NCBI GenBank assembly: GCA_038881895.1
Contig: JAVZOV010000004.1
Location: forward strand, 34,521 to 98,520
Length of the DNA: 64,000 nucleotides
Source: Thermoprotei archaeon
GTDB taxonomy: Archaea > Thermoproteota > Thermoprotei > Gearchaeales > WAQG01
Reading direction: 5' to 3'
The position numbers were made by a program, and so were the translations under genes. Shown piece by piece: positions 6,139 through 39,429 of the stretch. How positions within the stretch are numbered: the stretch's first letter is position 1; every line of letters starts with the position of its first letter. Under the pieces are notes generated by a model. That model ran no database searches, had not been told where the DNA came from, and saw nothing but the letters and a program-made list of their open reading frames with translations.

Positions 6139-6180
6139 CACCTCCGAGCTCTAATATATTTTGGTACGATAAATAAAAGG
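6139..6180 (-). promoter_or_regulatory. Putative lysW promoter region (TATA-like ttttatttat about 45 nt upstream of the lysW ATG, plus SD-like GGAGGTG)
   Basis: AT-rich TATA-like element and SD-like sequence read on the minus strand upstream of lysW; position fits an internal promoter downstream of lysM. Confidence 0.3.
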
Positions 6181-6228
6181 ATTTTTATTAAAAATTGTTC
6201 GAAATAAAAATAATCCCGCATGTACATG

Positions 6229-7438: not shown

Positions 7439-8482
7439 TCACACCGGCCTTAAAGGAGGCATCATGAGACCTTCCCCTTCATCAAAACCCATAGATATGT
7501 TAAACGCTTGAACCGCCTGTCCGGCACCACCCTTAATTAGATTATCTAACGCTGCAAACATGGTAACTCTGTTAACACGCTTCTCAAAGGCAAACCCAAT
7601 ATCAGCAAAATTACTCCCAACCACATACTTTGGATCTGGATACGGAGGAAAACCTTTAACAATACGAATAAACTTTTTATCTTTATAAAATCCTGAGACA
7701 ATTTTTAATAAATCCAAATTACTCAATGCATTTTTAACCCAAATATGTGCAGAAGCCAACACACCTCTCACACTGCCTACAGCATGAGGAATAAGGCTTA
7801 CCTTCACAACATTCTTAGAAAATCGATTTAATTCTTGTTCAACCTCAGCTACGTGCCTATGTCCCTCAGCTTCATAAGGTCTAATAGCATGTTCACGTTC
7901 CGGATGATGACTACCCATAGTAGGTTTAGAACCACTCTCGCTGCTGCCAGCTTTTATATCAACAATAACATTATCATAAATTAAACTATTAGCTGCGAGA
8001 GGTGCCAAGGCTAGTATAGAGGCAGTTGCATTACAACCCGGAGATGCTATCAAGCTAGCATTCCGCAACTCATCAAAATGTAATTCAGGTAGCCCATAAA
8101 CAGCCTTAGTCAGGAGATCAGGTTGAGGATGTTCGATTCCATACCAAATCTTATAGAGCTCAGGATCTTTAAGCCTATAATCAGCACTAAGATCAATCAC
8201 TCGCAAACCAACATTTAAAAGGTTTGGAACCAAAGTCATCGAGACACCATGTGGTACAGACAAAAACACTACATCCGATAGGTTCGTTAACTTATTTATA
8301 TCATATTCTGAAAACTTCAAAGAATAAAATCCTCTTAAGTTTGGATGCACAAAAGTTATAGGTTTTCCAACGTATTCTTTAGAAGTCACATAAGTCACTT
8401 CGACTTTCGAATGACTAGCTAAGATCCTTAATAACTCTCCTCCATTATAACCCGAACCACCAACTATGGAAACTCTAACCAT
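7439..8482 (-). CDS. lysY: N-acetyl-gamma-glutamyl-phosphate reductase-type enzyme, LysY/ArgC
   Basis: NAD(P)-binding VSIVGGSGYNGGEL N-terminus and catalytic Cys motif SPGCNATA; the likely start is the ATG at 8482 (MVRVSIVGG), inside the longer listed ORF. Confidence 0.8.
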   Translation of the reverse strand: MVRVSIVGGSGYNGGELLRILASHSKVEVTYVTSKEYVGKPITFVHPNLRGFYSLKFSEYDINKLTNLSDVVFLSVPHGVSMTLVPNLLNVGLRVIDLSADYRLKDPELYKIWYGIEHPQPDLLTKAVYGLPELHFDELRNASLIASPGCNATASILALAPLAANSLIYDNVIVDIKAGSSESGSKPTMGSHHPEREHAIRPYEAEGHRHVAEVEQELNRFSKNVVKVSLIPHAVGSVRGVLASAHIWVKNALSNLDLLKIVSGFYKDKKFIRIVKGFPPYPDPKYVVGSNFADIGFAFEKRVNRVTMFAALDNLIKGGAGQAVQAFNISMGFDEGEGLMMPPLRPV

Positions 8483-8760
8483 AAATACTAAAAATAACTC
8501 CAAAATAAAACATTTTTGTTACATTAAGAACAAAAAGAAAAAACAATAAAACAAATAAAACATTAAAAGCAAACATCACAAGTTTTACAAAAATGAATTA
8601 CACTACTAGCTTGTTATACTAAAGGAAGGAACTATAACCTCAAGTTGAATACCTCAATTATACTAACAATATTATCACGGAACTAAAGTTTAGTCTCTTG
8701 CTGAATTTCTGTAAAGGGGAAATAGGAAATAAAATTTTCTTAAAAATTTCATTTTTATAA

Positions 8761-13513: not shown

Positions 13514-14593
13514 ATGTTACAGTTTAAACTTCAAACTAGATTTAGTTTCATTTCTAACAATACATTAATCGATGAAGAACTTATTGAATTGCTTAAAGAA
13601 ATAAAAAGAAGCAGTTCTTTAATTTTAGCTGCTAAAAAAATACGCGTATCATATAAGTATGCATGGAAAAAACTCAATGAGACTAGTAGAGCTTTAGGAA
13701 CACCATTAGTAATAACAACAAGAGGAGGAAAATTTGGTGGAAGGACAGAATTGACCATAACAGGTGAAGAATTGTTAAGAAGATATGGACTGTTTACAAA
13801 ATATGCGTCAATAGAATTGCAAAATACTTTTAAAAAATATGTTATTGATAGTGATATAAACATTGTTGGTAGTCATTGTCCAGGCATAGAATTAGCATTG
13901 AAAACAATGGCATCTAAAAACTCAGAATTGAGATTTCATGTAGAAAACACAGGGTCCTTAAATGGTTTAATAAGTATAGAGGAAGGGAAATCTGATATTG
14001 CAGGAATACACCTACTAGATCCAGAAAGTGAAAAGTACAATGAACCATATATAAAGAAGCTTAATCTGAAAAACGTAATACTTATAAAAGGATACAAGAG
14101 AGAACAGGGATTAATAGTAAGAAAAGGCAACCCCAAAGGAATAAGAGGCATGGCTGACATTATCACTAGAAAAGGAATCTTTGTAAATAGAAACATGGGC
14201 TCAGGAACAAGAATACTCTTTGAAAAATTACTCTACAAAACAGCAAAAGAGTTTCAAATTAATTTTGAAGATGCAAAAAATTCTATACGTTATTATCCTC
14301 ATGAAGTCAACTCACACGCTGAAGTAGCACAAATAATACTTAAAGGATATGCTGACGTAGGATTAGGAATAAGAACAGTCGCAGACCAATATGGCTTAGA
14401 CTTTATACCACTAACTCTGGAAGAATTTGACTTTATAACCAATAATCAATCAATTAAGAATCCAGTAGTAAAGAAATTTTTCGCACTACTATCCTCACAA
14501 ACATTCAAACAAAAACTAACAAAATCACTAACAGGGATACATCCAACAGAAAATACTGGAAAAATCGAGAAAATAGATGATCCTCTTCCCTGA
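13514..14593 (+). CDS. ModE-like winged-helix regulator fused to a PBP-like (oxyanion-binding) domain
   Basis: N-terminus (LILAAKKIRVSYKYAWKKLNETSRALGTPLVITTRGGKFGGRTELTITGEELL) matches the ModE N-terminal HTH with its GG..GG motif. The C-terminal domain is homologous to the C-terminal domain of the MoeA fusion at 61725-63701. Divergent to the transporter operon. Confidence 0.65.
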   Translation: MLQFKLQTRFSFISNNTLIDEELIELLKEIKRSSSLILAAKKIRVSYKYAWKKLNETSRALGTPLVITTRGGKFGGRTELTITGEELLRRYGLFTKYASIELQNTFKKYVIDSDINIVGSHCPGIELALKTMASKNSELRFHVENTGSLNGLISIEEGKSDIAGIHLLDPESEKYNEPYIKKLNLKNVILIKGYKREQGLIVRKGNPKGIRGMADIITRKGIFVNRNMGSGTRILFEKLLYKTAKEFQINFEDAKNSIRYYPHEVNSHAEVAQIILKGYADVGLGIRTVADQYGLDFIPLTLEEFDFITNNQSIKNPVVKKFFALLSSQTFKQKLTKSLTGIHPTENTGKIEKIDDPLP

Positions 14594-20778: not shown

Positions 20779-22818
20779 TTATTTTGTTTCCTTTTTTGTT
20801 TCTTGTAACGAATTACCTAAAAGTTCTGCTACATCCATTACTTCCATATTGAATTCTGAGGCTTCGCTGCGCAACATTACATTACAAAACGGGCACGCGA
20901 CTACCACCTTATTTACATTAGTTGATGAAGCTTCTCTCATTCTAACTTTGCTTATTCTCTCACCTTTCTTTATATCGAAAAATGCATGTCCTCCTCCGCC
21001 GCCACAGCAAAATGTATTTCGTTTGATTCTATTCATCTCTTTAATTTCAGCAACATTTTTTATGATGTCTCTTGGTTCATTGTAAATGTTATTCCATCTT
21101 GCTAAGTAGCATGGATCATGATAGGTAACACTTTCTTTTGTTTTATTAATGCTTAATTTACCTTCTTTTATGAGCCTTTGTAGTAATATAGTATGGTGTT
21201 CAACCTCTATTTTTACTCCATACTGAACATATTCATGCTTGAAATTATTATAACCATGCGGACAATTAACTAATAATTTCTTGAATTTATATTTTTTAAG
21301 TATGTTTGAATTCTTTTGCACGATGTCCCTAAATAAGTACTCATCCCCTATTCTTCTTGCTGGCTCACCACAACAAACTTCTTCTAGCAAAACTGCAAAA
21401 TTTATATCAGCTTTTTTAAGAATCTTCATCAAATTATAGGCTACACTCCTAATGTTTGGATCGTAACTTGCATTACAACCTAACCAGTATATATAATCAT
21501 ACTCTATTTCTTCACGAGCTATCTCAACATTAAGTTCTGACGTCACAGATTTTAACCATGCCTCTCTATCCGCAGGATTATAACCATAAGGATTACCAGT
21601 TCTCATTATGTTATACGAGACTTGCTGTAATTCAGATGGTGTGTTTTCTCCAGAGGAATATATTCCACGTCTAAGATCTATTATAGTCTCAACCTGATTT
21701 ATTAAGACGGGACATACTTCAACACATGCACCGCATGTTACACAAGACCATATAACATCTGGGTTTATAGAATCTGGCACTAACTTTTTATTAAAATTCC
21801 TTTTATGCATTTCCTTTTTAGTATCAAGCATTACCATCATCGGACTTAATGGCTTCCCAGTGAGATTTGCTGGACATGCATTATGGCATCTCGCACATTG
21901 AGTGCACGCATCAAAATCCATTCGTTGCTTCCAAGACAAATCTGAAAGCATTACAGCCCCTATAGGCTTACCTTCCTCTACCAGCTTGTCCATGTTAGTT
22001 ATTGGTTTGTTAGCTGCAACAACTGGTTCTTCTAGTCTAGAAAAGAACGTATTTAGAATACCACTAACGAACATATGATAGAACTTTGTAAAAGGTATGA
22101 GGGCAATACTAGCAAGTGCTAGTGTTAAATGAAACACCCAAAGTATTCTATAAAACTCAATATAATTATTACCAAAGAGACTTCTAATAGAAAAAGCAAG
22201 AGGATAACCTATTACGTCCCAATCGTCAATCCATTGTAATCTGTAATTTAAAGTATTGATAGCATCCAGTATGAAACCTGTTACTATTATTATTAATAAG
22301 TCGATTAAAATTAGATAATCTTCTCGAGACGTAGGCAAATCTCTGTACGTTTTAAACACTCGTCTAATCAATGCTAATACTATGCCTATAATAGCCAAAA
22401 CACCTGAAATGTTAACCATAAGCTTAAACATTAAATACGCTGAGTCAACAAGAAATCTTGAACCGAAAAATCGTAAATATACATCATACTCTATTCCACG
22501 AAGTATCGTACCTATAAAAAGACCGATCATACCAATATAAATAAACACATGCACTGTGCCTCCTTGTTTCTGTCTTATAACCTTTGCTTGGAGTATGCCA
22601 TATTTGATAAGTCGTGATAATCGTTTTCCAAAATGATCAAAACTTATCCTTTGTCCTCCATAACTCCATAATTTAAAACTTCTGTAAACACCGTAAAGTA
22701 ATATTATAGCTACAATTATAGTATATATGTACACAAGAGATTCTAGATCCTCAACAAGGTTAAAATGTTTAATACCTTCAAATACATATAGAATATTTTG
22801 AACAAAAAACATGTACAT
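20779..22818 (-). CDS. Membrane-bound Fe-S oxidoreductase, fused HdrE-like (membrane, His-containing) + 2x[4Fe-4S] ferredoxin + HdrD-like double CCG domain; candidate ETF-linked quinone reductase (EtfD-like)
   Basis: Five or six N-terminal TM helices with conserved His; CTQCARCHNACP and CVTCGACVEVCP ferredoxin motifs; CCG-domain cysteine clusters (VCCGEP..., CCGGGGGHAFF, ACPFC); directly downstream of etfB-etfA on the same strand. Confidence 0.65.
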   Translation of the reverse strand: MYMFFVQNILYVFEGIKHFNLVEDLESLVYIYTIIVAIILLYGVYRSFKLWSYGGQRISFDHFGKRLSRLIKYGILQAKVIRQKQGGTVHVFIYIGMIGLFIGTILRGIEYDVYLRFFGSRFLVDSAYLMFKLMVNISGVLAIIGIVLALIRRVFKTYRDLPTSREDYLILIDLLIIIVTGFILDAINTLNYRLQWIDDWDVIGYPLAFSIRSLFGNNYIEFYRILWVFHLTLALASIALIPFTKFYHMFVSGILNTFFSRLEEPVVAANKPITNMDKLVEEGKPIGAVMLSDLSWKQRMDFDACTQCARCHNACPANLTGKPLSPMMVMLDTKKEMHKRNFNKKLVPDSINPDVIWSCVTCGACVEVCPVLINQVETIIDLRRGIYSSGENTPSELQQVSYNIMRTGNPYGYNPADREAWLKSVTSELNVEIAREEIEYDYIYWLGCNASYDPNIRSVAYNLMKILKKADINFAVLLEEVCCGEPARRIGDEYLFRDIVQKNSNILKKYKFKKLLVNCPHGYNNFKHEYVQYGVKIEVEHHTILLQRLIKEGKLSINKTKESVTYHDPCYLARWNNIYNEPRDIIKNVAEIKEMNRIKRNTFCCGGGGGHAFFDIKKGERISKVRMREASSTNVNKVVVACPFCNVMLRSEASEFNMEVMDVAELLGNSLQETKKETK

Positions 22819-22824
22819 TTTTTT

Positions 22825-23760
22825 TCACTTGATTGTTTTTTCTTTAAGCTTTTTAATAAATACTGGGAGAAATTGGTATAAATCAGCGATAACACTGTAA
22901 TCCGAATATTTAAATATTGGAGCATTTTTATCCTTATTTATAGAAACTATTACCTTCGCATCTACTGCAGAGATATGTTGGGGAGCACCAGATATCCCTA
23001 TTGCTACATAAAGTTTCGGTCGTATCTTCTTACTAGAAATTCCAATCCACACATCCTCAGGCAACCATTTAAGATCTGCAGCAATAGGCCTACTACATCC
23101 AACTTGAGCATCTATGATTGATGCCAAATCAAAAGCCAACTTTAAATCATCCTTCGACTTAAACCCTCTACCAACACCAACAACGGTATCTGCAGCCTCA
23201 ATATTCACCTCACTCTTCTTCTTCTCTTCAAAACTTACCAGCCTAACATTAGATACTGGAGGTGAGACTTTCTCAATGGCAGCAATTTTCTGAGATATTT
23301 CAAAAGGCTTAAATTTCTTAATTGGTACAGTAACAGCCGCATGTTTTGATGTCACCTCTCTACTTATAGCTCTTCCTCCTAGAATATTTCGTTCAAAAAT
23401 AATATTATTACCATCCAGTGAAACTGAAAGAACTTCTGTTAGCATTGGTAAATTATGCTTGGCTGAAACGCGAGCAAGAATATCATTACCAGTTTTTGTT
23501 GCAGATCCGATCAATAACCTCGGTTTCACCTCATTAAAAATCTTAGAAATAACTTCAGACACCTGATCAGGCAGAACTGCCCCTTCAATAACATATAGTT
23601 TATCAAAACCATAACGTGCTGCCTCGTTTACATCTCCATTGCTAACTGTAATACCTATCATACTGGTGCTGAATCCATTTCGTAACAATTCTGCAACAAG
23701 GCCTGAAGCATCTACTAATAATGAAGGTCTCTCTCCAAAAACTATAACAGTTTCAACCAT
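22825..23760 (-). CDS. etfA: Electron transfer flavoprotein alpha subunit
   Basis: C-terminal FAD-binding region (AVGISGAPQHISAV-type motif) and N-terminal Rossmann-like domain. Confidence 0.8.
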   Translation of the reverse strand: MVETVIVFGERPSLLVDASGLVAELLRNGFSTSMIGITVSNGDVNEAARYGFDKLYVIEGAVLPDQVSEVISKIFNEVKPRLLIGSATKTGNDILARVSAKHNLPMLTEVLSVSLDGNNIIFERNILGGRAISREVTSKHAAVTVPIKKFKPFEISQKIAAIEKVSPPVSNVRLVSFEEKKKSEVNIEAADTVVGVGRGFKSKDDLKLAFDLASIIDAQVGCSRPIAADLKWLPEDVWIGISSKKIRPKLYVAIGISGAPQHISAVDAKVIVSINKDKNAPIFKYSDYSVIADLYQFLPVFIKKLKEKTIK

Positions 23761-23773: not shown

Positions 23774-24586
23774 TCATATTCTTGGTTTTATAACACCCTC
23801 CTCTATCAGTTTAGAAATTAACTTTTCAGATACTTCATCAAAAGTACTTGCTTCTATTATTATGTTTTTCCTAGAAACCATTAACAACCTCACTGATTCA
23901 CGCCTATGCCCAACGTCAAGTAATTGTATGTTTAAATCGTTCAAAGTAAATTTTTTAAGTGGTTTTGCAAACGCCCTCCGTATTTGCAAGAGCATTGGCA
24001 ACCTAGCCCTATTAATCTCACCAGTCACGCTGATTACTGCAGGTAATGACGCCTCGATCCATTGCAATGAATCCTCTAAGTCACGAAGAACTTTAACTTT
24101 CTTATTCTCTATGTCAAGTTCTATAGCTCGCGCAAATGTTACTGTTGGAAGATTTAAGATCGTTCCAATTCTGGAAGCAATCTGCGCAGAAATAACATCC
24201 ATCGAAGCTTCGCCTGTGAGGTAAAGATCATAATTGCCTGTTTTTTTAACCGCTGATGCAAGTGCTATTGCTGTTTGGAGTGGATTAGCATTTATTAATC
24301 TCTCATCTGTAACCATGTATGCCTCATCAGCTCCCATGGCCAATGCCTCTCTTAATACTGATTCAGTATCATTAATACGTTTTGCAAGCGGTCCCCAAGT
24401 CACAACTGAAAAGACCGCAATTTTTCCACCAAATTTTTCCTTTATTCTTACGGCTTCTTCAACAGCATTCCTATCATATTCACTGATTACAAGAGGTATT
24501 TCCTCGATAAGAAGCTTACCGGAACTGTCAACTCTGATCATGTTAGCATCTAGTGATGCTTTAACCATTACAGCCACATCAACCAT
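23774..24586 (-). CDS. etfB: Electron transfer flavoprotein beta subunit
   Basis: ETF-beta fold with adjacent etfA. Confidence 0.8.
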   Translation of the reverse strand: MVDVAVMVKASLDANMIRVDSSGKLLIEEIPLVISEYDRNAVEEAVRIKEKFGGKIAVFSVVTWGPLAKRINDTESVLREALAMGADEAYMVTDERLINANPLQTAIALASAVKKTGNYDLYLTGEASMDVISAQIASRIGTILNLPTVTFARAIELDIENKKVKVLRDLEDSLQWIEASLPAVISVTGEINRARLPMLLQIRRAFAKPLKKFTLNDLNIQLLDVGHRRESVRLLMVSRKNIIIEASTFDEVSEKLISKLIEEGVIKPRI

Positions 24587-24766
24587 AATACCTCAGTATT
24601 ACATGCAAATCTAGAATTATAAAGTTTTTTATTATGTATTAATAATTTTAAGAAGAAATAATGAAATGCTGTCTTGTATTAAATGTATTGATTTTTGAAT
24701 TAAAATTATTATTATTAGAATAACAAATTTTGTATGAACACTTAATCTAAAGCGATAAAAAATAAA

Positions 24767-25114
24767 TTATGATTTTGCTGCCTCTATCATTTTTCTTAAC
24801 GATGTAGTCTCTATCACATTTCCTGTAATTTTCATTTGACCTCTAATAAATGCAGCCATAGAATCTAATTCGCCTTTCAATATTTTGATAAGAGTTTCCT
24901 TACTCATTGTAAGTGTTGCTGTAGGAGAATTGTGAGAACCCTGAACAACATTCGCACTTCCTTGTTTGAACTCTATATAAAATGGTTCTCCACCTTCTAT
25001 ATTAAACTGAAATATTTTATTCCAACCTGCCATTTCATTCCCCATCTTTAACTTAGCCTTTTCATACACCGCTTGTATTAAAGACTTAATATCTTCGGAC
25101 ATGCTCAACACCAT
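24767..25114 (-). CDS. SCP2 (sterol carrier protein-2-like) lipid-binding domain protein
   Basis: 115-aa alpha/beta protein with an SCP2-like pattern; beta-oxidation cluster context. Confidence 0.6.
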   Translation of the reverse strand: MVLSMSEDIKSLIQAVYEKAKLKMGNEMAGWNKIFQFNIEGGEPFYIEFKQGSANVVQGSHNSPTATLTMSKETLIKILKGELDSMAAFIRGQMKITGNVIETTSLRKMIEAAKS

Positions 25115-25201
25115 TTAAAATATTACCTTATCATCTTATTATATTTAACCATCGATTTTATGTGGCCGATAGCATATAACTGGGTTTTGCGTTATGCGCA
25201 T

Positions 25202-25216
25202 CTTCATAATATGAAG
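25202..25216. promoter_or_regulatory. Candidate operator: 7-bp inverted repeat CTTCATAaTATGAAG upstream of a TATA-like box (tttataa, ~25230-25241) in the divergent SCP2/thiolase intergenic region
   Basis: Palindrome read directly from sequence, about 47-61 bp upstream of the thiolase start; no similar site seen at other promoters in the cluster. Confidence 0.25.
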
Positions 25217-25262
25217 TGGAATTCCAGAATAACTTTATAACGTATTTAATGTATCATTTATA

Positions 25263-26465
25263 GTGGTGTTCTTCTTGGGTAGGAATGTGGCTATAATAGG
25301 TGTTGGGCATTCTAAATTTGGAATACGAACCGACGTAAATGTTGCAGAACTTGCATGGGAAAGCACAAAACAAGCAATGGAAAACGCCGGCGTTGATCAA
25401 AAAGACATAGATTATTATGTTACATCAAACGTTGGTGCATGGAGCAGTGAACCATTACCTGCTGTAGTTGTTGGAGAGTATAGCGACCTTGTACCCAAGG
25501 GCACTGTTAGAGTTGAAGCTGCGTGCGCATCAGGTAGCGCAGCCCTAAAACTTGGACATGATATGATAGCTAGTGGAGAAGCAAATATAGCATTGGTTGT
25601 AGGTGTAGAAAAAATGAACGAATCTCCAACACCAACTGTAGTAGAGTTCATTGGTAGGGCTGGAAATTATTTTTGGGAATTTGAAAACTTTGGTCTTACT
25701 TTTCCTGGATATTATGCTCTTTATGCAACAGCGTACATGTCTAAATATGGAGCCACCGAGGAAGATCTGTGCCAAGTTGCAGTTAAAAACCATTACTACG
25801 GTGCAAGGAATCCTAAGGCACAATTTCAAAAAGAAATCACCGTAGAGGAATGCATGAGATCTAGATATATCGCATGGCCTTTAAAATTACTTGATTGTTC
25901 ACCTATAACTGATGGTTCGGCTGCAATAATACTTGCAAGCGAGGAAATTGCCAAAAAAGTTACAGATACTCCTGTCTGGATTAAAGCTATTGGTTACGCA
26001 AATGATACTGCCAATTTAAGCAGACGTGATAATTTCCTTAGCTTAAGAGCTGCTGTTGAAGCAGCTAAGATGGCTTACAAAAAAGCTGGCATAGATGAGA
26101 CTGATCTTGTTAAGAACTTCGATGTAGCAGAAGTCCACGACTGTTTCACTATAGCTGAGTTACTTGCATACGAGGATCTAGGTTTTGTGAAAAAAGGTGA
26201 GGCAGTAAAATTGATCAGGGAAAAACAGACTTACATCGGGGGTATCATACCAGTCAATCTTAGTGGTGGTTTAAAAGCAAAGGGTCATCCTATAGCTGCA
26301 ACAGGAGTCAGCATGGCTGTAGAACTCACAAAACAGTTGAGACAGGAAGTAGAAAGAGAGCGTCAAGCACCTATTAAAAAAGGTATGGCGATAGCCCATA
26401 ATGTAGGCGGCACAGGTCATTATGCATATGTTACAATCTTCTCTCTTGATAAACCAAGGAGGTGA
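25263..26465 (+). CDS. Thiolase-family protein (acetyl-CoA C-acyltransferase / archaeal-type thiolase)
   Basis: N-terminal VAIIGVGHSKFG and active-site Cys region (EAACASGSAA); 4-nt overlap with the downstream DUF35 partner gene. Confidence 0.8.
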   Translation: MVFFLGRNVAIIGVGHSKFGIRTDVNVAELAWESTKQAMENAGVDQKDIDYYVTSNVGAWSSEPLPAVVVGEYSDLVPKGTVRVEAACASGSAALKLGHDMIASGEANIALVVGVEKMNESPTPTVVEFIGRAGNYFWEFENFGLTFPGYYALYATAYMSKYGATEEDLCQVAVKNHYYGARNPKAQFQKEITVEECMRSRYIAWPLKLLDCSPITDGSAAIILASEEIAKKVTDTPVWIKAIGYANDTANLSRRDNFLSLRAAVEAAKMAYKKAGIDETDLVKNFDVAEVHDCFTIAELLAYEDLGFVKKGEAVKLIREKQTYIGGIIPVNLSGGLKAKGHPIAATGVSMAVELTKQLRQEVERERQAPIKKGMAIAHNVGGTGHYAYVTIFSLDKPRR

Positions 26466-27040
26466 GTGCTATGAGTGCTCAACAGAAGGTTGAGAAAAAG
26501 AAGACACAAAAAGAGCAGACTGAAGAAGTCACAAAGCAATTTAATGAGTTTGTTGAAAGCATAAAGAAATCAACAGGACTACCAATAGTACCAGACATGA
26601 AAAGCGGAGCCGCACAATGGATAGACCAGCGAGAATTAACATTGAAATATGTAATAAGTGTTGACAAAATCAGAAAATTCTTCGATGGATTAATTGACGG
26701 CAAACTTTATGCGACAAAATGTAAACAATGCGGAACACTTTATTTTCCACCACAGGTCGATTGTCCTAAATGTAGGAAATCGGACATGGAATGGATCGAA
26801 TTAAGTAACGAAGGAGAACTGCTCACATACACAATAATAAACGTAAAACCGAACAGCTTTTCACATTATGATGATTACACAGTAGGTATTGCTAGACTAA
26901 AAGAAGGAATTAATATCACAGCATGGGTACGAGAAACTGATCCTAAAAAATTAAGAGTAGGAATGAAAGTTAAGGTTATAGTAACAAAACGTGAACCTGA
27001 AGGATATTTAACTTATGAATTAGAACCACTAACATCCTAA
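26462..27040 (+). CDS. DUF35-type Zn-ribbon/OB-fold protein (thiolase partner subunit)
   Basis: CKQCGTLYFPP...CPKC rubredoxin-like zinc ribbon followed by an OB-fold; conserved pairing with archaeal thiolases. Confidence 0.7.
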   Translation: MSAMSAQQKVEKKKTQKEQTEEVTKQFNEFVESIKKSTGLPIVPDMKSGAAQWIDQRELTLKYVISVDKIRKFFDGLIDGKLYATKCKQCGTLYFPPQVDCPKCRKSDMEWIELSNEGELLTYTIINVKPNSFSHYDDYTVGIARLKEGINITAWVRETDPKKLRVGMKVKVIVTKREPEGYLTYELEPLTS

Positions 27041-27113
27041 AGAATGGGGCTTGATTGTAAACGAATAGTTTTTAAACATGTATAAACAAGTATTTATGTG
27101 GAGGAGATAATAT

Positions 27114-28322
27114 TTGTTTCCCTTCAACAGTATTTTAGATTTTAAAGTAGAATTAACAAATGAACATGAAATGTTCAGAAAAATGATAAGACAATTTGCC
27201 GAAAACGAAATAGCACCAAAAGTTATGGAAATAGAAAAAACAAACACAATACCAGAAGAACTCATCAACAGAGCAAAAGAACTAGGACTAATGGGCGTTG
27301 GAATACCACCAGAATATGATGGACAAGGTGGAGGGGCTATGATGCTTGTCATACTCATGGAAGAACTTTCAAGAATTTCACCAGCATTCGCAACAAAAAT
27401 CGCAGTAAACCATCTATTTACAACACCAGTACTCATTTTTGGCACAGATGAGCAAAAAAAGAAATATATACCACCAATTGCCAGAGGTGAAGCTTTCGCA
27501 GCTCACGCAAATACAGAACCTGCAGCAGGTAGCGATGTTGCAGGCATACAAGCAACAGCTAGAAAAGAAGGAAATTACTGGATAATTAATGGTAGAAAAA
27601 TTTTCATAACAGGTGCAGATAGAGCTAAATATTTAGTAGTTTCCGCAAGAACAAGTCCACCACCAAGCAGAAAAGAAAGATGGAAAGGTTTAACATTCTT
27701 CATAGTAGAAGCTAACTGGCCTGGTATAAAAATTGGGTCAAAATTCAATGTAATAGGATTAAAAGGCGAACAACCTAACGAAGTGATACTTGATGATGTA
27801 AAAGTGCCTGAAGAAAACGTTCTAGGCAGAGAGGGAGAGGGATTCAAAGTTGCCGTCACAACATACGATCATGGAAGACTTGGGATCGCTGCCCAAGGTG
27901 TAGGTATTGCACAAGCAGTGTTTGAAAAATCATTAAACTATGCGCTACAGAGATACGCATTTGAAAAACCACTAATCTCATTCGAAGGAATAGCTTTTAA
28001 ACTATCAGATATGTTAACAGAACTTGAGGCAGCCCGCATGCTTACTTACTGGGCAGCCACACTAACAGATGCACAGAGACCCGAAGCCATAATGGCAGCA
28101 TCGCTGGCTAAAATGTATGCTACCGAAGTGGCGGAAAAAACCTCAGCACTAGCAATAAAGATTCACGGCGGTGTCGGTGTTGATCAAGAAGCAGGGATTG
28201 AGAGATACTTAAGAGATGCCCTCATAACAACAATTTATGAAGGAGCAAATGACATACAAAGAATAACAGTCATCAGAAGTCTATTAAGACAAGTATTTGG
28301 AACCAGCGTTGATATGATATAG
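27114..28322 (+). CDS. Acyl-CoA dehydrogenase
   Basis: ACAD N-terminal, middle and C-terminal domain pattern; TTG start preceded by a GGAGG Shine-Dalgarno-like motif. Confidence 0.8.
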   Translation: MFPFNSILDFKVELTNEHEMFRKMIRQFAENEIAPKVMEIEKTNTIPEELINRAKELGLMGVGIPPEYDGQGGGAMMLVILMEELSRISPAFATKIAVNHLFTTPVLIFGTDEQKKKYIPPIARGEAFAAHANTEPAAGSDVAGIQATARKEGNYWIINGRKIFITGADRAKYLVVSARTSPPPSRKERWKGLTFFIVEANWPGIKIGSKFNVIGLKGEQPNEVILDDVKVPEENVLGREGEGFKVAVTTYDHGRLGIAAQGVGIAQAVFEKSLNYALQRYAFEKPLISFEGIAFKLSDMLTELEAARMLTYWAATLTDAQRPEAIMAASLAKMYATEVAEKTSALAIKIHGGVGVDQEAGIERYLRDALITTIYEGANDIQRITVIRSLLRQVFGTSVDMI

Positions 28323-28335
28323 GAGGGGTAAAACA

Positions 28336-30324
28336 TTGAGTGTTGAACAAATTAAAAAAATCGCAGTAATAGGCGCTGGTACAATGGGACATGGAATAGC
28401 AGAAGTAATGGCATTAGCTGGGTATGAGGTTTGGATAACCGATATAGCCGAAGAATTTCTAAAAAACGCAATAGAGAAAATTAGATGGAGTGTTGGAAAA
28501 TTATATGAAAAAGGGCAAATCAAAGAAAATGTCGACACTGTACTCTCCAGAATACACGCTACACTATCGTTCGAAGAAACTGTTAGGAATGCGGACTTCA
28601 TGATAGAAGCAGTACCTGAGAAGCTGGATCTCAAAAAAGATGTATTCTCCAAAGCTGACAAAATTTTACCACCACATGCAATACTTGCTACAAATACAAG
28701 TAGTCTTCCTATAACGGAAATAGCTAATGTAACAAGCAGGCCTGAAAAAGTCATCGGCATGCACTTCTTTAACCCACCACCATTAATGCCATTAGTTGAA
28801 GTTGTTAAAGGTCAAAAAACTGATGATAACACAGTAAAAATAACGTATGAATTAACAAAGAAGATTGGAAAGCAGCCAGTCATAGTGAAAAAAGATGTAC
28901 CTGGATTCATAGTAAATAGAATACTGGGAAGATTACTTAACGCTGCGTGTTGGATAGTTGCAAATAAACAAGCCGATATTATTGAAGTTGACGCAACAGT
29001 ACGTTATAAATTAGGTTTTCCCATGGGAGCATTCGAGTTGGCCGATTATAGTGGGATAGATGTTTTCTATTTTGTGTTTAAAGCAATGAGCGAACGTGGG
29101 TATGTGGCTCACCCATGTCCATTATTTGAAGAGAAATTTAAAGCAAATGAATTAGGAATGAAAACAGGGAAAGGATTCTACACATATCCAGCACCAGGTA
29201 AATACGTACGACCAGAAATACCAAAAGAAAAAGCAGAAAAAGTAGACCCACTAATGATAATTGCTCCTGCAATAAATGAAGCATCATGGTTACTTAGAGA
29301 AGGAATAGCCAGCAGAGATGATATAGATAAAGCATGTAAACTAGGATTAGGATATCCAAAAGGCATTCTGGAATACGCCGATGAATATGGTATAGATCAC
29401 GTAGTAAGCACACTCGAAAGTCTCAAAAACATAACAGGATGGGAAGAACATAAGCCCGACCCATTACTTAAGCAAATGGTTAACGAGGGCAAACTCGGAA
29501 TGAGAACAGGAAAAGGATTCTATGAATACGGTGTCGTCGAAGAAAGAAAACTTTCCACAATTCTATTAAAACTCGAACCACCACTAGCATGGATAGTACT
29601 CAATAGACCAGAACGCTTAAATGCAATAAACATAGACATGTTAAAAGAATTAAACATAATATTAGATGAACTAGAAGAGGATGAAAGAATAAGAGTTATA
29701 ATACTAACAGGTTCTGGAAGAGCATTTAGTGCAGGAGCTGATGTAACAGGTTTCATGGGAATCACCCCAGTTAAAGCAGCAATATTCTCCAGAAAATTCC
29801 AAGAAATTCTAAATAAAATAGAATACTATACAAAACCAGTAATCATCGCTGTAAACGGATACGCACTAGGTGGAGGGCTCGAAATGGCAATGAGTGGTGA
29901 TATAAGAATAGCCTCCGAAACAGCACAATTAGGACAACCAGAAATAAACCTTGGTTTCATACCAGGTGCAGGAGGAACACAGAGACTATCAAGACTAACA
30001 GGGAGGAGCAAAGCTAAAGAAATAATCTTCACAGGCGATATGATATCAGCAAATGACGCACTAAAAATAGGGCTAGTTAACAACGTAGTACCACCAGAAA
30101 AACTCGAGGAAGAAACACGTAGGTTCGCATTAAAACTAGCAGAAAAACCACCACTAGCACTCATGGCAGCCAAGTATGCAATAAACTTTGGACTTGAATC
30201 AAACATATGGGCAGGCTTAGCATACGAAGCAAGCCTCTTTGGATTACTCTTCAGCACCGACGATGTAGTAGAAGGCGTGAGTGCATTCCTTGAAAAACGA
30301 AAACCAAAATTCAAAGGAAAATAA
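28336..30324 (+). CDS. Bifunctional 3-hydroxyacyl-CoA dehydrogenase (N-terminal) / enoyl-CoA hydratase (C-terminal) fusion
   Basis: NAD-binding IAVIGAGTMGHGIA at the N-terminus; crotonase-fold C-terminus (ALGGGLEMAMSGDIRIAS). Confidence 0.8.
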   Translation: MSVEQIKKIAVIGAGTMGHGIAEVMALAGYEVWITDIAEEFLKNAIEKIRWSVGKLYEKGQIKENVDTVLSRIHATLSFEETVRNADFMIEAVPEKLDLKKDVFSKADKILPPHAILATNTSSLPITEIANVTSRPEKVIGMHFFNPPPLMPLVEVVKGQKTDDNTVKITYELTKKIGKQPVIVKKDVPGFIVNRILGRLLNAACWIVANKQADIIEVDATVRYKLGFPMGAFELADYSGIDVFYFVFKAMSERGYVAHPCPLFEEKFKANELGMKTGKGFYTYPAPGKYVRPEIPKEKAEKVDPLMIIAPAINEASWLLREGIASRDDIDKACKLGLGYPKGILEYADEYGIDHVVSTLESLKNITGWEEHKPDPLLKQMVNEGKLGMRTGKGFYEYGVVEERKLSTILLKLEPPLAWIVLNRPERLNAINIDMLKELNIILDELEEDERIRVIILTGSGRAFSAGADVTGFMGITPVKAAIFSRKFQEILNKIEYYTKPVIIAVNGYALGGGLEMAMSGDIRIASETAQLGQPEINLGFIPGAGGTQRLSRLTGRSKAKEIIFTGDMISANDALKIGLVNNVVPPEKLEEETRRFALKLAEKPPLALMAAKYAINFGLESNIWAGLAYEASLFGLLFSTDDVVEGVSAFLEKRKPKFKGK

Positions 30325-30450: not shown

Positions 30451-30574
30451 GGGGCCGTCGTTCAGCCTGGATTAGGATGCCAGCCTGGGGTGAATACCCC
30501 ACAGGGATTCCCGGAACGCTGGTGATCCGGGGTTCAAAACCCTGAAAAGGGTGAAAATCCCCGCGGCCCCACCA
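30451..30574 (+). tRNA. tRNA-Pro (anticodon GGG) with two predicted introns: 26 nt after position 37 and ~19 nt within the T-loop; genomically encoded CCA
   Basis: Manual folding: acceptor GGGGCCG/CGGCCCC, D-stem GTTC/GGAT, anticodon stem CCAGC/GCTGG with loop CUGGGG|intron|C, T-stem CGGGG/CCCCG enclosing 26 nt instead of 7. Confidence 0.65.
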
Positions 30575-30691
30575 TCTGTTTAAGAATTATGTTTAAATGA
30601 TTCCTTATTTCAAAAATAATAAAAAAGTTTATATTAATCATTTAAAGAAAAATTTATTCTTGTAAATAGATAGAACTACTGATGAACATGA

Positions 30692-30783
30692 TGGGGCCGG
30701 CCGGATTTGAACCGGCGATCCCCAGGGCCCGAGCCTGGTACTCTAGGTTTTTAGCTTCCTAGACCAAGCTAGACTACGGCCCC
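30692..30783 (-). tRNA. tRNA-Pro (anticodon CGG) with a ~16-nt insertion (probable non-canonical intron) in the D-arm; no encoded CCA
   Basis: Reverse complement folds as acceptor GGGGCCG/CGGCCCC, intact anticodon stem-loop CCAGG-CUCGGGC-CCUGG, T-arm GCCGG-UUCAAAU-CCGGC; the D-arm region is 38 nt instead of ~19. Confidence 0.6.
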
Positions 30784-32990: not shown

Positions 32991-33650
32991 GTGTGTTTTC
33001 ATAATGTGAGTATTGATAATATCTTGCGTACAGCTTTAAGTAGTAAGGCGGTAGGACCTAAACCATCTTATGCATCAGTACATGTAATAAAATGTATAGA
33101 ACTTATAAGAGATCTAGGACCAATAGGCAGGCTTCGTCTTTCTAAGGAATTAAAACTCGGTGAGGGTTCAATGAAAACATTATTAGGAAAACTTAAGGAA
33201 TTAGGTCTGATCATTACAGAACGACAAGGATGCGCCTTAACTAATAAAGGTATTGAGGTAGGATTATGGCTTAAATCAAAAATACCCTCTCGTACATATT
33301 TAGGAAAAACAGTTCTAGCCATTGGTGATCACGCATATGCTCTACTAATAAGAAGTATCGACACGAAAAAACTAAAAACTGGGTTAGAACAACGTGATGC
33401 AGCACTTTTAGTTGGTGCACTGGGTGCATCAACGTTAATCGTGAGAAATAATCAAATAATACTACTACCTGATTTAAATGTTAACGAGAAATACCCTAAT
33501 GAGGCAGAAAGATTGCATGTATTATTAAATCCTCATGACGGAGATATAATAATAATCGGTAGCGGTGATAATCCACTGACAGCTGAGTTTGGCGCCCTTT
33601 CAGCATTTATTACGTTAATAAAAAATCCTGAAATCTTTAGAGTCGCATAA
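32991..33650 (+). CDS. Hypothetical protein with an N-terminal winged-helix-like segment
   Basis: ORF of 219 aa; no catalytic motif recognised. Confidence 0.35.
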   Translation: MCFHNVSIDNILRTALSSKAVGPKPSYASVHVIKCIELIRDLGPIGRLRLSKELKLGEGSMKTLLGKLKELGLIITERQGCALTNKGIEVGLWLKSKIPSRTYLGKTVLAIGDHAYALLIRSIDTKKLKTGLEQRDAALLVGALGASTLIVRNNQIILLPDLNVNEKYPNEAERLHVLLNPHDGDIIIIGSGDNPLTAEFGALSAFITLIKNPEIFRVA

Positions 33651-34811: not shown

Positions 34812-35360
34812 GTGAGCAAAATTCGAGTAAGATACTCAGAAGGACATATAATAGCATATGACCCGAAGGAAGCTCCTAAATTATTCAAGGAAGGCTTTTA
34901 TGGAAGACCTATTGGAATTGGCAAACCCAAAACATTTAATTTCGAAGCACCTCTTCAATTAAGTCTTTACGAAGCACTATATTTATTAGAAAATGGTGTT
35001 ATAGAGGTAGTAGACACTAACAATAATCCAGTATCCTTTGAGAAACTTTTTTTGGATGCGAAAAAGAATTATGAGGATTTTGATTTAGTATATTCAGTTT
35101 ATAAAGATCTCAGGAAGAAAGGTTTTGTGGTGAGACCAGGAATGAAATTTGGTACAACTTTTGCAGTTTACGAATATGGTCCAGGAATCGATCATGCACC
35201 GTTCCTAGTAGAAATAATGAAAAAGGACAGTAAGTTGAAAACTATTGATATAGTAGGTGCAGGAAGATTAACACATACTGTTAGAAAAAAGTTATTATTA
35301 GCAGTAGTTAATGAAGATAATAGTGTTAACTATTACATGTTCAGATGGATTAAATTTTAA
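34812..35360 (+). CDS. endA: tRNA-splicing endonuclease catalytic subunit
   Basis: Conserved EndA core ...DLRKKGFVVRPGMKFGTTFAVYEYGPGIDHAPFLV... (catalytic Tyr/His/Lys context); 182 aa, as in Sulfolobales catalytic subunits; GTG start. Confidence 0.8.
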   Translation: MSKIRVRYSEGHIIAYDPKEAPKLFKEGFYGRPIGIGKPKTFNFEAPLQLSLYEALYLLENGVIEVVDTNNNPVSFEKLFLDAKKNYEDFDLVYSVYKDLRKKGFVVRPGMKFGTTFAVYEYGPGIDHAPFLVEIMKKDSKLKTIDIVGAGRLTHTVRKKLLLAVVNEDNSVNYYMFRWIKF

Positions 35361-36620: not shown

Positions 36621-37988
36621 ATGGAAATGAAACTTTATTATGACAAAGGCACGATAGTATTAGTTAGCAGGGATCGTATTCCATTACAACTGGTAAAATT
36701 CTTTAAATTTGACCCTAGAATCAATGCGTATAGAAGCTTAGCAATGTATTATCCTGTTATCACATCAATACTTCGAAATTTAAAGATTAGTTTTCTAGAT
36801 AATGTCTTTTATCCTATGGGTTGCCTAAAATTTAATAAACGATTTGATGTGAAATTAAGAGGTTATCAGAGTAGAGCACTAAGCAACTGGATGAATACTG
36901 ATAAACGTGGAATAATTGTGCTACCTACAGGTTCAGGTAAGACACTTATAGGAATTATGGCGATTCTAGAGTTAAAAGAACCAACATTAGTAATCACACC
37001 AACAATAGAGTTGATGGATCAATGGGCTTTGCTTATTCAAAAATATCTTGATGTGGATGTAGGATTATATGGTGGTGGTGATAAAGAATTAAAGTGTATC
37101 ACTGTAACTACATACAGTTCTGCATACCTTAATGCTGAATTAATTGGCAATAGGTTTAAGTTAATAATATTCGATGAAGTACACCATTTACCTAGTGAAG
37201 GTTATAGACAGATTGCTGAACTTTCAGCCGCTCCGTATAGAATGGGCCTTACAGCCACACCAGAGAGAGAGGATGAGGCGCATAAAGATTTAGATCAATT
37301 AGTTGGCCCGATAGTATATAGAAGTGGTGTGAAAGATCTCGCAGGCTCATATTTAGCGAATTTTGAAATTAAAAGGATCTACGTGCCATTGACTAAAGAA
37401 GAATATGCAGAATATAAAAAGCTGAGTAGTATATATGAGGAATATTTCAAGAAACGTGGCTGGACCTTACGGTCATTAAGGGATTTCGAGAAATTTATAA
37501 TGAGAACGGGTAATGATATGAAAGCACGTAAAGCACTTCTAGCATGGAGTAGGGCTAGGTCTATTGCACTAAACTCTTCCACTAAAATGGAAAAATTACG
37601 TGAACTATTACGTTATCACAGAGGCGAACGCATTATCATATTCACTGAACATAATGAACTTGTTAAGCATATTTCTAATGAATTATTAATACCAATCATA
37701 ACACATAAAACTAGCGATGATGAAAGAAAAGCTGTCATGAATGGTTTCCGAACAGGAATATTCAGTACTATAGCAACTAGTAAGGTTCTCGAAGAAGGCA
37801 TCGATGTACCAGATGCAAACATTGCTATAATTCTTAGCGGGTCAGGTAGCAAACGAGAGTTCATACAAAGGCTTGGCAGAATACTAAGACCTAAGGAAGG
37901 TAAAAAAGCAATACTCTATGAAATAATAAGCTCAGGAACAAAAGAAGTACGCGTATCAAAGAAACGATCAAAAGCATTAGGTGAATAA
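36621..37988 (+). CDS. xpb: XPB/Rad25-type SF2 helicase
   Basis: Walker A PTGSGKT, Walker B DEVHH, RED motif (TATPEREDEAH); 455 aa. Confidence 0.75.
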   Translation: MEMKLYYDKGTIVLVSRDRIPLQLVKFFKFDPRINAYRSLAMYYPVITSILRNLKISFLDNVFYPMGCLKFNKRFDVKLRGYQSRALSNWMNTDKRGIIVLPTGSGKTLIGIMAILELKEPTLVITPTIELMDQWALLIQKYLDVDVGLYGGGDKELKCITVTTYSSAYLNAELIGNRFKLIIFDEVHHLPSEGYRQIAELSAAPYRMGLTATPEREDEAHKDLDQLVGPIVYRSGVKDLAGSYLANFEIKRIYVPLTKEEYAEYKKLSSIYEEYFKKRGWTLRSLRDFEKFIMRTGNDMKARKALLAWSRARSIALNSSTKMEKLRELLRYHRGERIIIFTEHNELVKHISNELLIPIITHKTSDDERKAVMNGFRTGIFSTIATSKVLEEGIDVPDANIAIILSGSGSKREFIQRLGRILRPKEGKKAILYEIISSGTKEVRVSKKRSKALGE

Positions 37989-39429
37989 AATGCTTCCAAC
38001 ACAACTACTACGTGTACAAATACGCGGAGGATACATTAAACCAGTTTATGCCGAACTATCCCATGAGAATTTATATCTTGCAGAAAAATTAATCAATATA
38101 TTTAAAAGTTTTATTAATAAAAAACTTAAAGAACTAGAAGATGAACTTAACGAAGCTGAAACAATAGCTGAAAGTGAAGGATATAATTATAAATTCATTA
38201 AAGGATTGATAACCTTGCTAAAACGCAGACTAACTATTAAGGAGACAACTCTCTCCTATGATCCCTTATTTATAAGGCTAGAAATCTTTAAAACAGTAAA
38301 TCAGCTTTATAGAGGATTTGCTTTAACACAAGAAGAACGTAAAAACGTAATAGATCTAGTAGCACAAAAGCTTAACATAAACCATGATGATGTAGAAAAC
38401 GGTTTCAGAGCAGTTTATGAAGAAGAAAACACGATCGATAACTTTCAAGAGATATCACCAGAAGAACTCATAAAACTTTACAATCTATCATTGACACAAA
38501 CATTACTTTTTAAATGCACAAATCTTGTTGCAGATATAAAAACAACAGGTCATAAAACCAGGCAAATCTTATGGAGTATAAAAAGAAATGGTCTACTTTA
38601 CATGGCTGAGAAAATTAATGAATCTGTACGCATAACAATAGATGGGCCTGCATCGATAATAAAGCAAACTGAACGCTATGGAACAAACTTAGCTAAAACG
38701 TTACCATTAATAATTTCTGCAGACCATTGGAACATTGAGGCATCAATAATTAGGAAAACCAGATATAAAAATAAACACTTAACTTACAAATTTATAACTA
38801 ATGATACAAACAAACACCTATATCCAGTTCAATTACTAGAAGGCACTGTGATATATGACAGTTCTCTAGAAGAAGATTTTCATAAAAGATTTAACACATT
38901 AAAAAGCGATTGGACTATTATTAGAGAGCCAGAACCATTAGTGGTCGGGACAAAAATATTCATACCAGACTTTGTTTTTATCAGAAATAATGAGAAAATA
39001 TATCTCGAGATCGTAGGATTTTGGACAAAAGAATACATAAAAAGAAAGATAGAGAAAATGAGAGATTTGAAAAATGTAAAAATGATAATAGCAATAGACG
39101 AAAGTATTGACGAATTCAAAACAGAAGAATTACCTCACACAATAATAAAATTTAAACGTTCATTACCATCATACGAAGTACTCAAAACACTTAACTCTTT
39201 ATCTCCAAAAAACATTACCAAAGAAATGACAGAACTAAAAATAACAGGTGAATCGCAATTAATTAATGTTAACTTAGATGGTATGACGCTTTCAGATGCA
39301 ATTGAAGTATTTAAAACACACAACATAAGTGACGCTAATCTTGAAATAATATTAGAGAAACTTGGCTATAAAGTAGAATGGAATACTCTTGACCCTAACA
39401 AGACAATAATACGAAAAATCAAAAAATAA
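37981..39429 (+). CDS. bax1: Bax1-like nuclease partner of XPB (DUF790)
   Basis: Translationally coupled to xpb (8-nt overlap); size and conserved position fit archaeal XPB-Bax1 pairs. Confidence 0.6.
   Translation: MNKMLPTQLLRVQIRGGYIKPVYAELSHENLYLAEKLINIFKSFINKKLKELEDELNEAETIAESEGYNYKFIKGLITLLKRRLTIKETTLSYDPLFIRLEIFKTVNQLYRGFALTQEERKNVIDLVAQKLNINHDDVENGFRAVYEEENTIDNFQEISPEELIKLYNLSLTQTLLFKCTNLVADIKTTGHKTRQILWSIKRNGLLYMAEKINESVRITIDGPASIIKQTERYGTNLAKTLPLIISADHWNIEASIIRKTRYKNKHLTYKFITNDTNKHLYPVQLLEGTVIYDSSLEEDFHKRFNTLKSDWTIIREPEPLVVGTKIFIPDFVFIRNNEKIYLEIVGFWTKEYIKRKIEKMRDLKNVKMIIAIDESIDEFKTEELPHTIIKFKRSLPSYEVLKTLNSLSPKNITKEMTELKITGESQLINVNLDGMTLSDAIEVFKTHNISDANLEIILEKLGYKVEWNTLDPNKTIIRKIKK

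Follow-up and report, generated by a model that had tools for sequence, protein, structure and literature searches.

The stretch of DNA studied here, a 64-kb window from the MAG of an uncultured Thermoprotei lineage, very probably carries an ordinary archaeal fatty-acid β-oxidation module and, between two back-to-back promoters, a palindrome that is a lineage-specific product of chance. A preliminary description of this DNA had reported a compact β-oxidation cluster adjoining etfAB, and Pfam and NCBIfam domain searches and synteny in relatives agree with that report. It had also proposed the palindrome as the operator of a trans-encoded TetR-type regulator, which our analysis does not bear out.

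Gene content and order of the β-oxidation cluster

Domain searches assigned the following genes:

20779–22818, minus strand: membrane Fe-S oxidoreductase, candidate EMO-type ETF:quinone oxidoreductase (Pfam Nitrate_red_gam 128–252, Fer4_9 304–371, CCG twice)
22825–23760, minus strand: etfA, electron transfer flavoprotein (ETF) alpha (Pfam ETF_alpha and ETF)
23774–24586, minus strand: etfB, electron transfer flavoprotein beta (Pfam ETF)
24767–25114, minus strand: stand-alone SCP2 (sterol/lipid carrier), divergent from thiolase (Pfam SCP2, 8.9e-16)
25263–26465, plus strand: archaeal thiolase related to SCP2-type thiolases (Pfam Thiolase_N and Thiolase_C_1)
26462–27040, plus strand: DUF35 protein with zinc ribbon and OB fold (Pfam zf-ChsH2 and OB_ChsH2_C)
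27114–28322, plus strand: acyl-CoA dehydrogenase, ACAD (Pfam Acyl-CoA_dh_N/M/1)
28336–30324, plus strand: bifunctional 3-hydroxyacyl-CoA dehydrogenase (N-terminal)/enoyl-CoA hydratase (C-terminal), HCDH/ECH (Pfam 3HCDH_N 8–187, 3HCDH 190–284, ECH_1 418–661)
50941–52200, plus strand: second acyl-CoA dehydrogenase, unlinked to the cluster (Pfam Acyl-CoA_dh_N/M/1)

The genes for thiolase, DUF35, ACAD and HCDH/ECH would form a four-gene operon transcribed rightwards. Translation of the thiolase starts at GTG 25263 or TTG 25275; in its 396-aa form it matches NCBI MEM3833466.1, from a MAG of a Thermoprotei archaeon, with 100% identity, and against NCBIfam PRK06064 it scores 593.7 bits, above the cut-off. 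The start of the DUF35 gene overlaps the thiolase stop by 4 nt (26462–26465), and a GGAGG Shine-Dalgarno-like motif is found 5′ of the ACAD gene. By Pfam domain architecture, the operon provides the enzymes that mark a β-oxidation module, namely an ACAD, an (S)-type HCDH/ECH with the HCDH domain at the N-terminus, and a thiolase.

SCP2 would be transcribed leftwards from the 148-bp spacer that separates it from the thiolase gene. Beyond it, a predicted operon of etfB, etfA and the EMO-like oxidoreductase gene would hand ACAD electrons to the quinone pool, so that both an ETF acceptor and a route to quinone are probably encoded next to the dehydrogenase. The etfA product scores below the cut-offs of the NCBIfam ETF alpha families. 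The gene at 20779–22818 comes immediately after etfA in the same orientation and is kept in the related loci L001, L081 and L082. In its product, Pfam detected a membrane domain of the NarI (haem b) type at the N-terminus, followed by a 4Fe-4S dicluster domain and a pair of CCG domains; a membrane haem-b part and a cytoplasmic Fe-S/CCG domain, encoded with etfAB, are the features by which EMO is described.

The closest relatives (L001, L081, L082 and L163–L172) share the order of all eight genes, with the EMO-like gene, etfA, etfB and SCP2 reading leftwards and thiolase, DUF35, ACAD and HCDH/ECH rightwards. In 149 of 160 related loci, thiolase is followed by DUF35 on the same strand. The locus is one further tidy example of archaeal β-oxidation genes, from an uncultured Thermoprotei lineage, and its gene set is of a kind usual in heat-loving archaea. 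The cluster itself holds no regulator gene, as the preliminary description had stated, and the second acyl-CoA dehydrogenase that it placed at 50941 was confirmed by Pfam. Rfam gave no match in the segment 50650–50960. Two intron-bearing tRNA-Pro genes, missed by ARAGORN, are also present in the window.

Comparison with known systems and direction of the pathway

The β-oxidation enzymes of Sulfolobus acidocaldarius are ACAD Saci_1123, HCDH/ECH Saci_1109, ketothiolase Saci_1114 and ETF Saci_0315 (bioRxiv 10.1101/2024.07.05.601840). The same enzyme set is present here, and Saci_1109 has the same inverted order, with HCDH at the N-terminus and ECH at the C-terminus. The arrangement differs: the S. 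acidocaldarius genes are spread over a 30-kb cluster of 23 ORFs, whereas here they would make up one compact operon, in which, unlike in the S. acidocaldarius β-oxidation set, the thiolase gene is paired with a DUF35 gene. The ETF here is split into alpha and beta subunits, in contrast to the fused Saci_0315, and the genes of the two subunits are followed by that of the EMO-type membrane oxidoreductase. In contrast to the S. acidocaldarius system, no FadR gene is found nearby.

The membrane protein was likened by description to EMO, the ETF:methylmenaquinone oxidoreductase of Syntrophus aciditrophicus, a membrane-bound dihaem/Fe-S protein encoded next to etfAB (PMC8805022). That enzyme is bacterial, whereas the candidate described here is archaeal. 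Coupling of ETF to an EMO-like membrane protein, as opposed to the fused ETF of S. acidocaldarius, may be of use to those working on archaeal lipid metabolism.

Adjacent, overlapping genes for a thiolase and a zinc-ribbon/OB-fold DUF35 protein are likewise known for the thiolase-HMGCS-DUF35 complex of Methanothermococcus thermolithotrophicus (PDB 6esq/6et9) and for the KT/DUF35 pair Saci_1121/1120 of S. acidocaldarius, and the neighbouring thiolase and DUF35 genes of the window conform to this pattern. PDB relatives of the thiolase include 6esq, to chain A of which it is homologous with E = 1.5e-73, and the SCP2-thiolase 6hsj. In contrast to these complexes, the neighbours here are the degradative ACAD and HCDH/ECH genes, with no HMG-CoA synthase, SDR, MaoC or MDR gene nearby. 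Neither the cluster nor the set of frequent neighbours in related loci includes a gene for an HMGCS partner, and the score against NCBIfam AcCoTHIOL_METTL, the M. thermolithotrophicus thiolase family, is 363 bits, below the 600-bit cut-off. The locus thus does not have the make-up of the mevalonate-pathway thiolase/HMGCS/DUF35 complex.

A divergent SCP2 gene was observed upstream of the thiolase gene in 62 of 146 related loci. We regard it as possible, rather than probable, that the trio of divergent SCP2, thiolase and DUF35, which occurs in many Thermoproteota orders and relatives, is a split archaeal counterpart of eukaryotic SCPx, in which SCP2 passes acyl-CoA to the DUF35-scaffolded thiolase; here ACAD, HCDH/ECH, ETF and the EMO-type quinone reductase would have been recruited to give a self-contained acyl-CoA-to-quinone module. 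The likeness lies in the association of SCP2 with a thiolase, here one akin to the SCP2-thiolase subfamily (6hsj, E = 4.7e-46). SCPx is a fusion of thiolase to SCP2, whereas the putative archaeal counterparts are separate divergent genes, with DUF35 as an extra partner.

In Sulfolobales, HCDH/ECH fusions and thiolases have a role in the 3-hydroxypropionate/4-hydroxybutyrate cycle as well. The cluster might be used for something other than degradation, either running backwards for biosynthesis, with DUF35 as scaffold of the thiolase, or for the steps from crotonyl-CoA to acetyl-CoA in that cycle. We consider this improbable. The ACAD is encoded together with ETF and with a membrane Fe-S protein that would oxidise ETF, and in S. 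acidocaldarius ACAD/ETF are unable to run reductively (bioRxiv 10.1101/2024.07.05.601840). The synthesis-specific SDR ketoreductase, MaoC dehydratase and MDR enoyl reductase, moreover, are absent from the cluster. Degradation is the probable direction of the pathway.

The divergent spacer and its palindrome

Three features were placed in the 148-bp spacer between SCP2 and thiolase:

25139–25148, minus strand: SCP2 TATA-like box TTAAATATAA (minus-strand reading), 25–34 nt before ATG 25114
25202–25216, no strand: perfect 7+1+7 inverted repeat CTTCATAaTATGAAG, taken to be a lineage-specific product of chance
25233–25240, plus strand: putative TATA box of the thiolase operon, CTTTATAA, 23–30 nt before GTG 25263

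The spacer probably contains two back-to-back BRE/TATA core promoters, each 23–34 nt from its own start codon. This spacing suggests that the SCP2 and thiolase transcripts are leaderless or near-leaderless. A purine-rich, BRE-like AGAATAA precedes the thiolase TATA box, which is invariant at 8/8 positions in all five related lineages used for footprinting (thiolase 91–97% identical). Both core promoters are well preserved in these lineages. On the SCP2 side, L001 and L161 show high conservation of the block 25105–25150, and L081 retains most of it. The predicted etfB promoter has the same TATA-like sequence on the minus strand (24617–24624) and has AACTTTATAA in common with the thiolase promoter. 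A 13-nt direct repeat, GTATTAAATGTAT (24676) and GTATTTAATGTAT (25242), which joins the upstream regions of etfB and thiolase, was rejected as it is not conserved in relatives.

The inverted repeat of the preliminary description is present as given there, and it does lie just upstream of the thiolase TATA-like box, which begins 16 nt past the end of the repeat. Such repeats are frequent in the window. Perfect inverted repeats with 7-bp arms and a spacer of 0–10 number 97; those with a spacer of 1 number 11, against 6.5 ± 2.2 expected from a first-order Markov model. Intergenic DNA, which amounts to 6,408 bases, holds nine perfect repeats with spacers of 0–3, about one per 700 bp. When the palindrome was searched for with up to 2 mismatches, the window gave one match versus 0.59 expected, and 46 of 100 shuffled sequences gave at least one. 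The palindrome is thus neither commoner nor more perfect than composition predicts. No second copy exists in the 64 kb, including the regions upstream of etfB, of the ACAD gene inside the cluster and of the second acyl-CoA dehydrogenase gene (50941–52200), and allowing 3 mismatches added just two matches, both within coding sequence. A reading of the repeat as an RNA hairpin or terminator was rejected, since its stability is not unusual (MFE −5.0 kcal/mol, z = 0.03) and the site is upstream of both divergent start sites.

The palindrome is lost from the orthologous spacer in all five close lineages, each of which retains the gene order and CTTTATAA. Eight of its 15 columns are identical in spacers of the L001 type and six in those of the L081 type, where there is an indel as well. 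It sits in the middle of the spacer, in the fastest-evolving, indel-rich segment, outside both core promoters. It would have arisen as a chance inverted repeat through a few substitutions in one lineage.

Candidate regulatory elements

As an alternative, the palindrome could be an operator gained recently in this lineage and bound by a dimeric transcription factor, TetR-like or other, whose gene lies elsewhere in the genome and which regulates one or both divergent promoters in response to acyl-CoA. In favour of this are the perfect dyad symmetry of a sequence set between divergent promoters next to β-oxidation genes, and its placement, which is where the site of an upstream activator would be. 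There is also an archaeal precedent in FadR_Sa, a TetR-family protein of S. acidocaldarius, whose sites are 16-bp semi-palindromes of the type TTGACCnnnnGGTCAA or YTGA-N8-TCAR found at several places in the S. acidocaldarius cluster (PMC6449355). FadR_Sa reportedly works at distances of over 130 bp from promoters, so that position alone is no strong argument against binding at the palindrome. Its loss from the five lineages is compatible with recent gain. The likeness to FadR_Sa operators (PMC6449355) goes as far as the general idea of a dyad-symmetric site that controls archaeal β-oxidation genes: those operators are multi-site, whereas the repeat found here is unrelated, has a single copy in the window and shares no half-site with them. 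With up to 3 mismatches, the FadR-type pattern was found 16 times in the window versus 20 expected, with none in the spacer, and is not enriched.

A Pfam scan of 59 of the window's ORFs, covering those of 70 aa or more with the exception of four large ones, found no TetR_N domain. The scan yielded these potential regulators:

6229–6669: Lrp/AsnC regulator
13514–14593: PBP_like protein with a weak HTH_1
32991–33650: DUF4443 protein with a PH0730-like HTH

A repeat at chance frequency, single in 64 kb, absent from all five close lineages, unlike the FadR_Sa motif and with no TetR gene among the ORFs scanned is very unlikely to be the operator that had been proposed. Its regulatory significance is probably small, and since the proposed operator fails the tests of frequency, of recurrence within the 64 kb and of conservation, the palindrome should not be taken as the starting point of a regulon search.

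A 10-bp palindrome, TGGAATTCCA (25218–25227), abuts the BRE on its upstream side, where archaeal regulators typically bind. That this palindrome, in place of the 7+1+7 repeat, is the functional element, an activator or repressor site for the thiolase promoter, strains belief. The homologous TAGAATTCTA in L001/L173/L174 and L161/L162 is also perfect, through two substitutions in symmetrical positions (G>A and C>T), but one such change is weak evidence. The symmetry is lost in L175 (TAAAAATCTA) and the L081 group (TAAATTTTAA), and an estimate from base composition puts the number of perfect 10-bp palindromes that chance would give in 64 kb at about 100.

A search for the 7+1+7 repeat in 1.45 Mb from 160 related loci with up to 2 mismatches gave eight matches, none of them a true palindrome, and homology was rejected. 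Those in Caldisphaera (cATAATAATATGAAG at −49) share just ATAATATGAAG, which in Caldisphaera lies right against the TATA box and looks BRE-like. Among the SCP2-thiolase spacers of 56 distinct loci, no pan-clade operator was found. The palindromes shared by these spacers are clade-restricted repeats of near-identical sequences, such as ATCCTGaCAGGAT in Acidilobus loci and TCCACG-N7-CGTGGA in L049, L052, L121 and L128.

The beta-oxidation cluster and its likely direction

Pfam and NCBIfam domain searches bore out all gene calls of the preliminary description, which had recognized a fatty-acid beta-oxidation cluster adjacent to etfAB and a second acyl-CoA dehydrogenase (ACAD) gene at 50941. The window is AT-rich (30–42% G+C in 2-kb steps).

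Genes of the cluster and the second ACAD (Pfam and NCBIfam; Pfam for the first and last entries)
20779-22818, minus strand: membrane protein of 679 aa, similar in domain architecture to ETF:methylmenaquinone oxidoreductase (EMO), downstream of etfA
22825-23760, minus strand: etfA
23774-24586, minus strand: etfB
24767-25114, minus strand: SCP2
25263-26465, plus strand: thiolase
26462-27040, plus strand: DUF35 protein, zinc ribbon and OB fold
27114-28322, plus strand: ACAD
28336-30324, plus strand: fusion of 662 aa, hydroxyacyl-CoA dehydrogenase (HCDH, N-terminus) and enoyl-CoA hydratase (ECH, C-terminus)
50941-52200, plus strand: second ACAD

The thiolase and DUF35 genes share 4 nt at their junction. 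Two starts come into question for the thiolase: GTG 25263, which opens the longest ORF (400 aa) and corresponds to the JGI calls in relatives, and TTG 25275, from which NCBI annotates the protein. The latter 396-aa form is 100% identical to MEM3833466.1 ('MAG: Thermoprotei archaeon'). In the EMO-like protein, a NarI-like membrane domain occurs with a 4Fe-4S dicluster domain and two CCG domains, an architecture that matches, by description, EMO of syntrophic bacteria (PMC8805022); its sole PDB relative is 9ojn, 'Iron-sulfur-binding reductase'.

The gene set corresponds to the reconstituted beta-oxidation of Sulfolobus acidocaldarius, with an ACAD and ETF, an HCDH/ECH fusion of the same 'inverted' domain order and a ketothiolase (bioRxiv 10.1101/2024.07.05.601840). 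Four features set the window genes apart from those of S. acidocaldarius: their compact operon layout, the DUF35 partner of the thiolase, separate alpha and beta subunits of ETF (that of S. acidocaldarius is described as fused), and the gene for the EMO-like protein that follows the ETF genes. Thiolase/DUF35 pairs have been assigned to fatty-acid synthesis (Saci_1121/1120; bioRxiv 10.1101/2024.07.05.601840) and, in methanogens, to the mevalonate pathway (PDB 6esq). Domain scans of the cluster found neither the synthesis partners SDR, MaoC and MDR nor HMG-CoA synthase. Their absence, together with the co-location of ACAD, ETF and EMO-like genes, favours the degradative direction.

The thiolase-DUF35 gene pair is nearly universal in related loci (149 of 160), and the complete thiolase-DUF35-ACAD-HCDH/ECH operon is found in 14 of them, with etfBA-EMO genes beside it in the closest relatives only. 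Where enough upstream sequence was available (146 loci), a divergent stand-alone SCP2 gene lies immediately upstream of the thiolase in 62; the spacer between the two is fairly constant in length (median 192 bp). This divergent pairing spans many Thermoproteota lineages, and a literature search found no paper on it. The thiolase is related to SCP2-type thiolases, and with SCP2 beside it the arrangement recalls eukaryotic SCPx. Genes often found nearby in the 160 loci also code for an acyl-CoA synthetase-like protein and for unrelated housekeeping functions; the TetR family is missing among them.

Predicted promoters and palindromes in the SCP2-thiolase spacer

The spacer in the window is 148 bp long. 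Its elements, as read from the sequence, are:

25139-25148, minus strand: putative SCP2 TATA-like element TTAAATATAA, 25-34 nt before the SCP2 ATG
25202-25216: palindrome CTTCATAaTATGAAG, a perfect inverted repeat, its 7-bp arms 1 nt apart
25233-25240, plus strand: putative thiolase TATA box CTTTATAA, 23-30 nt before GTG 25263

The purine-rich AGAATAA precedes the thiolase CTTTATAA, and AACTTTATAA is common to the putative etfB and thiolase promoters. TATA-to-start spacing of this size is typical for leaderless archaeal transcripts; given the box at 25233-25240, a leaderless thiolase start at 25263-25266 is plausible. The palindrome, present exactly as the preliminary description had it, stops 16 nt short of the thiolase TATA box. 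Its centre is ~54 nt away from the thiolase start and ~65 nt away from the SCP2 TATA box, which places it outside both predicted core promoters.

The palindrome is real but unremarkable, and its occurrence is not beyond chance. A count of perfect inverted repeats with 7-bp arms gave 97 in the window at spacers of 0–10 nt; those with a 1-nt spacer number 11, against 6.5 ± 2.2 expected under a first-order Markov model. Nine (spacer 0–3) are intergenic, which in 6,408 bases amounts to ~one per 700 bp, and thus any 148-bp spacer has about a one-in-five chance of holding one. At ≤2 mismatches the CTTCATAaTATGAAG pattern gave one match in the window (0.59 expected), and at least one turned up in 46 of 100 shuffles; three mismatches added just two, both within coding sequence. 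As RNA, the segment folded no better than shuffles (z = 0.03).

Conservation was assessed in five independent close lineages (thiolase 91–97% identical) obtained from genome and metagenome scans and exact-protein look-ups. Their loci are L001/L173/L174, L161/L162, L175, L081/L163-L172 and L082. All with enough sequence have the gene order of the window, from EMO, etfA, etfB and SCP2 on one strand to thiolase, DUF35, ACAD and HCDH/ECH on the other. In the spacer alignment CTTTATAA is invariant (5/5 lineages), and conservation is also good around the start codon and in the promoter block on the SCP2 side. Indels are frequent in the middle of the spacer, where the palindrome falls, and no aligned type has a palindrome at the homologous columns:

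L001 type: TTTCTTTG-ATGATA, 8/15 identical
L161 type: TTTCTTTG-GTTGTA
L175: TTTTGTTT-TTAAGA
L081 type: TTTCTCTTAT-TAAG, 6/15 identical

The 15-bp palindrome would have arisen by a handful of substitutions, in the window's lineage alone. A second perfect palindrome, of 10 bp (TGGAATTCCA, 25218-25227), abuts a BRE-like element. Its counterpart in L001/L173/L174 and L161/L162, TAGAATTCTA, differs by a symmetrical pair of substitutions (G>A / C>T) and is again perfect, and L175 and the L081 group have lost the palindrome; it is probably due to chance.

The operator question

The palindrome had been proposed as a possible operator of a trans-encoded regulator, for example of the TetR type. An archaeal precedent for such control is FadR_Sa of S. 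acidocaldarius, a TetR-family repressor whose four binding sites within a 30-kb cluster are 16-bp semi-palindromes; published sites are of the TTGATGCAATGGTCAA, CTGACCCTTTGGTCAA and TTGATTCTAGGTTCAA type (PMC6449355). The window palindrome has no half-site in common with these. Scanned for the FadR-type pattern, the window gave 16 matches at ≤3 mismatches against 20 expected and thus no enrichment, and none of the matches lies in the spacer. Since FadR_Sa acts mostly from sites >130 bp away from promoters, the unusual place of the palindrome does not by itself decide the matter. Pfam scans of 59 of the window's ORFs revealed no TetR-family protein; the only DNA-binding regulators among these were:

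6229-6669: Lrp/AsnC regulator, in a lysine or arginine biosynthesis cluster
13514-14593: PBP_like protein with a weak HTH_1 match, adjoining an ABC transporter
32991-33650: DUF4443 protein with a PH0730-like HTH

Spacers of other clades have palindromes of their own, common only to near-identical sequences, and no joint operator was found; an Acidilobaceae group has GGAATT-N7-AATTCC at −50. With its frequency at chance, its absence from the five close lineages and its unlikeness to FadR_Sa sites, the palindrome does not support the operator reading. That it is a binding site peculiar to this lineage we consider very improbable.

Other features of the window

The region upstream of the second ACAD (50703-50940) contains a perfect palindrome, CAGAACTTTAGTTCTG, at 50768-50783 and a G+C-richer, structured-looking stretch (~50780-50910) with no Rfam match. 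Two divergent tRNA-Pro-like genes, 30451-30571 (+) and 30690-30782 (−), with anticodons GGG and CGG, apparently hold two and one intervening sequences, respectively, at non-canonical positions. ARAGORN found no tRNAs in the window as is and called tRNA-Pro for both once the inserts were removed on trial; Rfam gave a partial tRNA match only (30699-30758, minus strand, 31 bits). At 34812-35360 the window encodes a tRNA-splicing endonuclease.

Two TnpB/OrfB_IS605-type genes, each with a Cas12f1-like TNB domain, are located at 52846-53922 (−), in the G+C-richest 2-kb step (0.418), and at 60405-61592 (+). A Cas6 gene is found at 1483-2385. The LysX/amino-acid-kinase lysine or arginine biosynthesis cluster that includes the Lrp/AsnC regulator spans, as far as the domain scan covered it, 5120-7435, between flanking ORFs 3966-5123 and 7439-8503. 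An XPB helicase gene followed by that of a DUF790 protein occupies 36621-39429.
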